Shown piece by piece: positions 1-458 of a stretch of DNA of 458 nucleotides. A model generated the notes under the pieces. It worked only from the letters and a program-made list of their open reading frames with translations. It was not told the origin of the DNA and made no database searches. The translations under genes were made by a program, and so were the position numbers. Source of the DNA: Escherichia coli (GTDB lineage Bacteria > Pseudomonadota > Gammaproteobacteria > Enterobacterales > Enterobacteriaceae); NCBI RefSeq assembly GCF_003334255.1, contig NZ_QOWU01000236.1; one strand, 5' to 3'. Positions within the stretch are counted from its first letter, which is position 1. Each line of letters starts with the position of its first letter.

Positions 1-458
1 CTTCCCAGCTGGCTGTCAGGTTTTGGTGTACCAAACGGCATGTTCTCCTGGTAAATCTGCGCCCCCATGAAGTTTTCGTTCATGGCAAGATTCGCAAACG
101 GACGCAGAATTGTCGGTGCTGCATTTTTCAGCAATGCCCCGGACAGCGTTTCCGACGTCTCACTGCCAATCGGGCTGAATGCCCCCAGGATACCACCGAC
201 AACATTACCGGCAGCACGGGACGCCGTCAGGTCACCAGCAGCCACACCTTCAGAGGTATGCCCGAGCAGGAAGAAAACGTTGTACCCGTAAGGCAGAGGA
301 ATACTCCAGTACTCTCCGGCCCTGCCCCCGAACATCGATTTCATAATGACGAGGTTACGCTCTTTCACATGATACGGCACCTTGTCGTACCAGTTAACCC
401 CGTCATCATCCTCACCCGCCACACTGCGGTTAAGCGAGCCAAGCAGATAACCCGCTCC
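1..458 (-). CDS. Internal fragment of a protein-coding gene (5' and 3' ends both outside the window); hypothetical protein of unassigned function
   Basis: Reverse-complement translation from + position 458 gives 152 sense codons with no stop (codons occupy + 458..3, plus 2 nt of the next codon at + 2..1): GAGYLLGSLNRSVAGEDDDGVNWYDKVPYHVKERNLVIMKSMFGGRAGEYWSIPLPYGYNVFFLLGHTSEGVAAGDLTASRAAGNVVGGILGAFSPIGSETSETLSGALLKNAAPTILRPFANLAMNENFMGAQIYQENMPFGTPKPDSQLG. Third positions are mostly C/G/T with few A-ending codons, and common enterobacterial codons dominate (CTG, GCG, CCG, AAC, GAC, GGT, TTC, TAC). Amino-acid composition is balanced and protein-like. The other two minus frames stop within about 30 codons (TGA and TAA), and + frames 1 and 2 contain several stops. 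The in-register + frame 3 is open but uses rare codons (CGG, CGA, AGG, AGA, ATA) and encodes a Cys/Arg/His-rich peptide, as expected of an antisense strand. No internal ATG has a convincing Shine-Dalgarno, so the true start is probably beyond + position 458. Function was not assigned because no search could be run. Confidence 0.8.

Follow-up and report, generated by a model that had tools for sequence, protein, structure and literature searches.

A stop-free antisense frame in a giant polyvalent-protein gene of Stx-type phages is probably a shadow of sense codon usage

Introduction

Antisense frame -1 hosts the longest spurious open reading frames (ORFs), and codon bias largely explains them, as Mir et al. 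(2012, PMC3454372) discuss with reference to Silke (1997) and Merino et al. (1994). Antisense overlapping genes, some of them in frame -1, have also been reported in E. coli O157:H7 (PMC9927249; bioRxiv 10.1101/2020.11.18.388249).

By definition, a polyvalent protein is a very large single polypeptide that combines between two and fifteen distinct conflict-related domains, and the LPD38 domain, to which no function was assigned, is confined to polyvalent proteins of the phage type (Iyer et al. 2017, PMC5512222). In phage phi24B, the LPD38 polyvalent protein gp47, which is the product of gene vb_24B_48, was detected in purified virions by LC-MS/MS. It is absent from the phi24B cryo-EM density, and the authors of that study propose that it is encapsidated and serves as an ejection protein (bioRxiv 10.64898/2026.04.10.717836).

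Here we describe a 458-nt stretch of E. coli DNA, referred to below in its full length as the window, in which a coding frame and its in-register antisense frame are both free of stop codons. We compare this locus with the systems above and argue that the minus strand carries the gene, while the plus-strand frame, with an 87-codon ORF inside it, is most probably a non-functional shadow of it.

Results

Two stop-free frames share their triplet boundaries

Six-frame translation of the window (458 nt, GC 55%) showed two frames of 152 codons, + frame 3 and − frame 1, to be free of stop codons, and placed 4, 6, 5 and 11 stops in the remaining four frames. The codons of + frame 3 run from 3-5 to 456-458 and those of − frame 1 from 458-456 to 5-3, so that the triplet boundaries coincide and the frames are in register. 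Both properties had been claimed in the original prediction, which was made from the letters of the window, and both were confirmed. The features within the window are as follows.

Positions 1..458, minus strand: internal fragment of a giant polyvalent virion protein gene (− frame 1, the real coding frame), codons 2445-2596 of 2,783.
Positions 15..395, minus strand: N-terminal ~60% of LPD38 (Pfam PF18857, model positions 2-112 of 189), residues 22-148 of the window, E = 1.7e-27.
Positions 3..458, plus strand: stop-free, in-register antisense frame (+ frame 3), read here as a non-coding shadow frame; piece of a 174-codon open run.
Positions 258..458, plus strand: 87-codon ORF with an ATG start, read here as a shadow ORF; its first 67 codons lie in the window and its end, at 521, lies outside.
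Product of the 87-codon ORF, plus strand: MPEQEENVVPVRQRN…

The open run around the window spans 174 codons (gene codons 2425-2598) and is limited by sense codons 2424 and 2599. Codon counts in the minus frame gave 15 Leu codons (CTG 9, CTT 3, CTC 2, TTG 1) and 11 Ser codons (TCG 3, AGT 3, TCC 2, AGC 2, TCT 1), which bears out the predicted absence of TTA, CTA and TCA. The description of + frame 3 as rich in Arg, His and Cys and in the codons CGG, CGA, AGG, AGA and ATA agrees with the counts as well: its translation holds 20 Arg, 9 His and 6 Cys residues, and it uses CGG 5, CGA 3, AGG 3, AGA 1 and ATA 2 times, with one AGG as the only member of this set in the minus frame. Neither strand had an Rfam match at E ≤ 1, and a structured-RNA explanation was therefore set aside.

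The minus strand encodes part of a giant polyvalent protein

The window is 100% identical to positions 12001-12458 of a locus in E. coli O104:H4 strain FDAARGOS_349 (L001), within a minus-strand CDS at 11439-19790 (8,352 nt, 2,783 aa; WP_000331660.1, 'LPD38 domain-containing protein'). The − frame 1 of the window lies exactly in frame with this CDS, and reading is uninterrupted over all 2,783 codons. The minus-frame peptide matches phrog_616 (E = 1.8e-102), whereas no NCBIfam family was matched by either frame of the window. Significant matches to the PF18857 model were obtained both for the minus frame of the window and for the parent protein, and a domain scan of the whole protein located four domains.

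Protein residues 1047-1190: LPD5.
Protein residues 1351-1430: LPD1.
Protein residues 1740-1829: MuF_C.
Protein residues 2466-2671: LPD38, complete (E = 4.7e-46, model positions 2-189).

With four conflict-related domains fused in a polypeptide of 2,783 aa, the parent protein falls within the definition of a phage-type polyvalent protein, and the prophage context, which includes antirepressor, Lom and Hok genes, is consistent with this class. The phi24B gene vb_24B_48 is its ortholog (95.6% nucleotide identity at the window and 89.6% amino acid identity over the full length), and since gp47 was found in phi24B virions, the minus-strand product has protein-level support in a close relative. The window product thus belongs to the LPD38 domain of a giant polyvalent protein of Stx phages, which probably has an ejection role; by analogy with the proposal for the phi24B ortholog, such a protein would travel inside the capsid and be ejected into the host. 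Residues 14-53 of the window's minus frame also have a weak match to phrog_26276 (E = 0.0022), an 84-aa family of unknown function, and this family may derive from a fragment of the giant gene, or a mis-called part of it, deposited as a separate small protein.

The window occurs with 100% identity in the E. coli O104:H4 prophage and in phage PhiR5_2, and copies at 90-99% identity are present in 426 of the 5,426 complete E. coli genomes and in 186 phage records, of which almost all belong to Stx-converting phages. Its carrier is a 933W-like, short-tailed, Stx-type temperate phage or prophage in which the giant gene is placed at the end of the late/structural gene block. O104:H4 genomes contain two copies of the locus, the second of which is 95.9% identical and matches Stx2a phage P13374. 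The prophage with the exact window adjoins a truncated 4Fe-4S protein gene just after ynfF (L001 7492-8013), and on this basis it appears to be integrated into ynfG. In three prophage contigs from IMG/VR, frameshifts or premature stops break the giant gene, and 4 and 28 in-frame stops follow downstream, with disruption at codon ~776 of the 839-codon C-terminal stretch in L007 and L008 and at codon ~14 in L025, which suggests that these copies belong to decaying prophages.

Substitutions are constrained in the minus frame

We collected 64 related IMG/VR loci, of which 51 close ones represent 27 distinct haplotypes over the window. The 72 variable sites among the close loci fall 10, 4 and 58 times at minus-frame codon positions 1, 2 and 3, and the Nei-Gojobori dN/dS over the window was 0.06 when the minus frame was read and 2.03 when + frame 3 was read. 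Antisense values above 1 are expected of a non-coding in-register frame, because position 3 of the sense codon is position 1 of the antisense codon. To provide a null, the same ratio (NG86) was taken in frameshift-free haplotypes from the rest of the C-terminal 839 codons of the gene, where the antisense frame is interrupted. Antisense dN/dS was 2.07 in the open run versus 1.97 in these interrupted parts, so that the open run shows the absence of purifying selection of its own that characterizes a shadow ORF.

Farther upstream, at sense codons ~264-480 before the window (locus positions ~790-1450 of L003-L053), antisense dN/dS reached 19-43 in 88-codon blocks, a consequence of antisense-synonymous differences being nearly absent there. 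Sense-synonymous diversity is highest (0.12-0.13) slightly upstream of these blocks, at locus positions ~400-800. The extreme blocks probably reflect small counts or mosaic recombination between phage alleles.

The 87-codon ORF as a candidate overlapping gene

The alternative that survives best, though we consider it very unlikely, is that the 87-codon plus-strand ORF (258 to 521; L001 12258..12521 in the ORF listing, 87 aa) is a genuine antisense overlapping gene, possibly expressed in the lysogen while the late genes are silent. The antisense genes reported from EHEC with the help of ribosome profiling offer a precedent for such a gene, although the three validated EHEC overlapping genes are stated to lie outside phage-derived regions (PMC9927249). 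The ORF has an ATG start, and an OLGenie-style conditional test gave a dNN/dNS for it that is nominally below 1, at 0.63 (bootstrap CI 0.18-4.1), with a dSN/dSS of 2.3, from 39 variable sites that provide limited power. For the whole open run, dNN/dNS was 0.52 (CI 0.23-1.59) and dSN/dSS was 1.27. Both dNN/dNS intervals include 1, and the test thus returned no significant antisense constraint for the ORF or for the open run. A dNN/dNS below 1 is expected even when antisense selection is absent, because second-position changes, which are the most damaging for the sense protein, are all counted as NN, and a dSN/dSS of 2.3 points in the wrong direction for selection on the ORF. The 839-codon control for this test took in a few frameshifted loci, and its dNN is inflated. 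Sense-synonymous diversity under the ORF is not depressed: among the gene's 88-codon windows it ranks at the 20th percentile, which gives no hint of a second constraint. Purifying selection on the plus frame was therefore found neither by dN/dS, which matched the null, nor by the conditional tests with their limited power.

Conservation of the antisense frame was followed among close and distant relatives. Two positions in the window carry sense-synonymous alleles that close the antisense frame.

Positions 219..221, minus strand: sense Ser codon TCC; synonymous TCA in 21 of 51 close relatives, giving TGA in + frame 3.
Positions 186..188, minus strand: sense Leu codon CTG; synonymous CTA in 2 of 51 close relatives, giving TAG in + frame 3.

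As a result, + frame 3 is open across the window in 28 of the 51 close loci and stopped by a sense-synonymous change in the other 23. Both stops lie upstream of the 87-codon ORF, which is intact in 51 of 51 close loci, with GTG in place of its start codon in nine of them. The intactness of the ORF speaks for a gene but carries little weight, because the close loci are at least 95% identical at the protein level. Distant homologs (31-58% identity) all keep the sense frame open, and many of them break the plus frame. Antisense stops number zero in four of these homologs, with GC3 of 0.68, 0.81, 0.78 and 0.81, three in L061 and L062 at GC3 0.70, and one to nine where GC3 is ≤0.60. Within the stretch equivalent to the 87-codon ORF, stops are found in L056 (53% identity), L058/59, L061/62 and L066, and L055 has no Met at the position equivalent to the start. 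A residual likeness between antisense peptides (ENVVPVRQRN versus ENIVAIRERD) is the mirror of a conserved sense motif, IPLPYGYNVFF. The openness of the antisense frame is thus not conserved among diverged homologs, as is typical of shadow ORFs.

Signals for expression were sought in L001 11400-12800. A consensus scan, which is a weak test, found no plus-strand sigma-70-like promoter in this interval; it returned one promoter-like site on the minus strand and one terminator-like site on the plus strand, as many as shuffled sequence would give. The only purine-rich stretch before the ORF, GAGG, ends 1 nt before the ATG. A spacing of 1 nt is too close for a canonical Shine-Dalgarno sequence, and by these scans, weak as such tests are, the ORF has neither a promoter nor a ribosome-binding site of its own. 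Its product would in addition be rich in Arg, His and Cys and encoded with rare codons. As annotated, phi24B has tRNA genes of its own (L069 1680-1931) for Ile reading AUA, Arg and Ser, which makes the rare-codon argument (ATA, Arg) against + frame 3 slightly weaker in this phage group, while the other evidence is decisive.

The ORF is also a deposited CDS in AP005153 and AP005154 and has a PHROG family of its own: residues 86-152 of + frame 3 match phrog_23924 (E = 3.3e-40), a family of 87 aa and unknown function. The original prediction had named database hits to a plus-strand product as evidence that would overturn it, and formally such a hit exists, yet it most likely reflects annotation practice and not biology. 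In a sample of 60 of the 186 phage records, a second feature at this locus is annotated only in AP005153 and AP005154, which carry an all-ORF annotation from 2003. AP005154 lists 205 features in 62.7 kb, among them an 'ORF c30' inside 'ORF C30' and ~18 nested ORFs on both strands within the giant gene, and it is a mechanical deposit of every ORF. Because the 87-codon ORF is annotated only in records of this kind, the match to phrog_23924 most likely represents annotation history and no independent gene, and we infer that AP005153 and AP005154 are the likely source of the family. The members of the family are apparently shadow ORFs on the strand opposite the giant gene, at window positions 258-458 (+) and at L068 8878-9264.

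The phi24B record (HM208303, L069) annotates three more antisense ORFs nested in the giant gene.

L069 32192-32515, antisense: vb_24B_50c.
L069 34667-35047, antisense: vb_24B_51c.
L069 35398-35769, antisense: vb_24B_52c.

Notes in the record claim similarity of these ORFs to metallophosphoesterase and ABC transporter. By analogy with the ORF described here, they are probably shadow ORFs from other long antisense-open runs.

A narrower version of the overlapping-gene reading, less probable again, is that the 87-codon ORF would be a young, clade-restricted (Stx-phage) antisense gene within the ejection-protein gene, perhaps lysogen-expressed. A young and clade-restricted gene would be expected to lack a deep conservation signal; the sequence evidence nonetheless appears to give the ORF no support in this role, and leaves such a role highly improbable. 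In their main text, the two EHEC studies report no overlapping gene at this locus (PMC9927249; bioRxiv 10.1101/2020.11.18.388249).

Codon usage and the length of the open antisense run

We built a host codon model from the 16,134 codons of 44 host genes in L067 and L001. Under this model the minus frame of the window scored +67 bits, as a log-likelihood ratio, over its in-register antisense. In 9,674 windows of 152 codons from the host genes the mean was 69 bits, the minimum was 16 and none fell below zero, which places the window at the median (50th percentile). A codon model from the rest of the giant gene favored the minus frame by +119 bits. The view of the gene as codon-adapted and GC3-biased goes too far, and the idea that this sets the gene apart was rejected: the window has a GC3 of 0.61 and the whole gene one of 0.56, versus 0.60 in the host sample, and with the window's codon score at the median the gene is average.

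An antisense stop would require TTA, CTA or TCA in the sense frame. These three codons make up 1.3% of the giant gene (36 of 2,784 codons) versus 2.4% of the host sample, and at this frequency antisense stops stand ~75 codons apart on average, so that stop-free stretches of 150-230 codons recur along the gene. An 8.3-kb gene gives many chances for long gaps between rare codons, and its antisense-open runs reach 227, 201, 196, 186 and 174 codons, the last of which, the fifth longest, is the run of the window. The in-register antisense frame is open in 262 of 2,632 windows of 152 codons in the giant gene (10.0%) and in 810 of 9,674 (8.4%) in the 44 ordinary E. coli genes. An independent-codon model with the window's 15 Leu and 11 Ser codons gave double-open probabilities of 0.019 under host usage and 0.071 under the gene's own usage. 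Calling the absence of the three codons mildly unusual was therefore fair, at about 1 in 10, and attributing the open antisense frame to the codon usage of the sense gene was correct. Two of the features by which such shadows are recognized, shared triplet boundaries and a length explained by the frequency of TTA, CTA and TCA, are both present here.

It could also be that avoidance of TTA, CTA and TCA is itself selected, either because it keeps the antisense frame open or because these codons are poorly decoded in the late phase of the phage, an explanation to which we give very little credence. The lower frequency of the three codons would fit, as would the share of TTA and CTA among Leu codons, which is 7.2% in the giant gene versus 16.5% in the host, and some long frame -1 ORFs have been argued to exceed the codon-usage expectation (Mir et al. 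2012, PMC3454372). However, TCA is not avoided in the giant gene (12.9% of Ser codons versus 10.6% in the host), and TCA and CTA alleles segregate freely among close relatives at window codons 80 and 91. Double-open windows are about as frequent in host genes as in the giant gene, and antisense openness in homologs broadly tracks GC3.

The converse assignment, in which the plus strand would carry the gene and the minus frame would be its shadow, finds a basis only in the isolated window, with its two stop-free frames of equal length, and was ruled out as next to impossible: stops break + frame 3 at 36 points along the gene, and the uninterrupted minus frame, Pfam and PHROG homology, the substitution pattern, the 67-119 bit codon preference and the frames kept by distant homologs all favor the minus strand.

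Discussion

The above analyses indicate, with a probability of about 95%, that the window is a piece of one minus-strand phage gene and that + frame 3, including the 87-codon ORF, is a non-functional shadow. The choice of the minus strand in the original prediction, made on codon usage and composition, is upheld by the annotated 8,352-nt CDS, the LPD38 and phrog_616 matches, a dN/dS of 0.06 and a codon score of +67 bits. Frame membership, domain identity, the selection pattern, codon statistics and the non-conservation of the antisense frame are established here. Annotation of the gene, its strand and its domain existed before, and antisense openness of this kind is a known side effect of codon usage.

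The biological weight of the observation is small, and its use is mainly as a caution. The concern that a naive ORF caller could pick the wrong strand applies to the isolated 458-nt fragment and does not extend to the genomic context, where the minus ORF extends over 2,783 codons and no + frame 3 ORF at this place exceeds 87 (ORF listing). Short fragments of this gene, such as reads and small contigs, are thus liable to wrong-strand calls. Moreover, a strong profile match to a family of unknown function, here phrog_23924 at E = 3e-40, is not evidence of a gene, and annotation of Stx-phage contigs against PHROGs could spread the spurious ORF.

Among known systems, the antisense overlapping genes of EHEC (oloz0137, in frame -1 to yadF, PMC9927249; pop, asa and ano) resemble the 87-codon ORF in being short, ATG-initiated and wholly embedded antisense to an annotated gene of a pathogenic E. 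coli, and oloz0137 has the same frame (-1) relation (PMC9927249). The EHEC candidates are backed by Ribo-seq, a transcription start site, a promoter and a phenotype, whereas the 87-codon ORF is known from sequence alone and, compared with them, fails the tests of selection, conservation and start signals.

On the sense strand, the closest relative is the LPD38 polyvalent protein gp47 of phi24B, which has the same LPD5, LPD1, MuF-C and LPD38 domains (bioRxiv 10.64898/2026.04.10.717836). Its gene vb_24B_48 occupies the same position at the end of the late/structural block and encodes a protein that is 89.6% identical. The copy described here is an allelic variant of 2,783 aa, versus 2,807-2,811 aa in phi24B, and the 100%-identical copy lies in the prophage at ynfF/ynfG of O104:H4. 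The Stx2a prophage of that strain is a different one, with 95.9% identity over the window.

On the antisense strand, the locus conforms to the shadow ORFs of frame -1 (Silke 1997, Gene 194:143; Merino et al. 1994; Mir et al. 2012, PMC3454372). The frame relation is the same, with position 1 opposite position 3, as are the cause, a scarcity of TTA, CTA and TCA in the sense gene, and the risk of wrong-strand or spurious ORF calls. That literature stresses highly expressed genes, whereas the giant gene has average host codon usage. As with the shadow ORFs described before, the antisense frame of this gene carries no signal of selection, and the length of its open run fits the codon frequencies of the sense gene.
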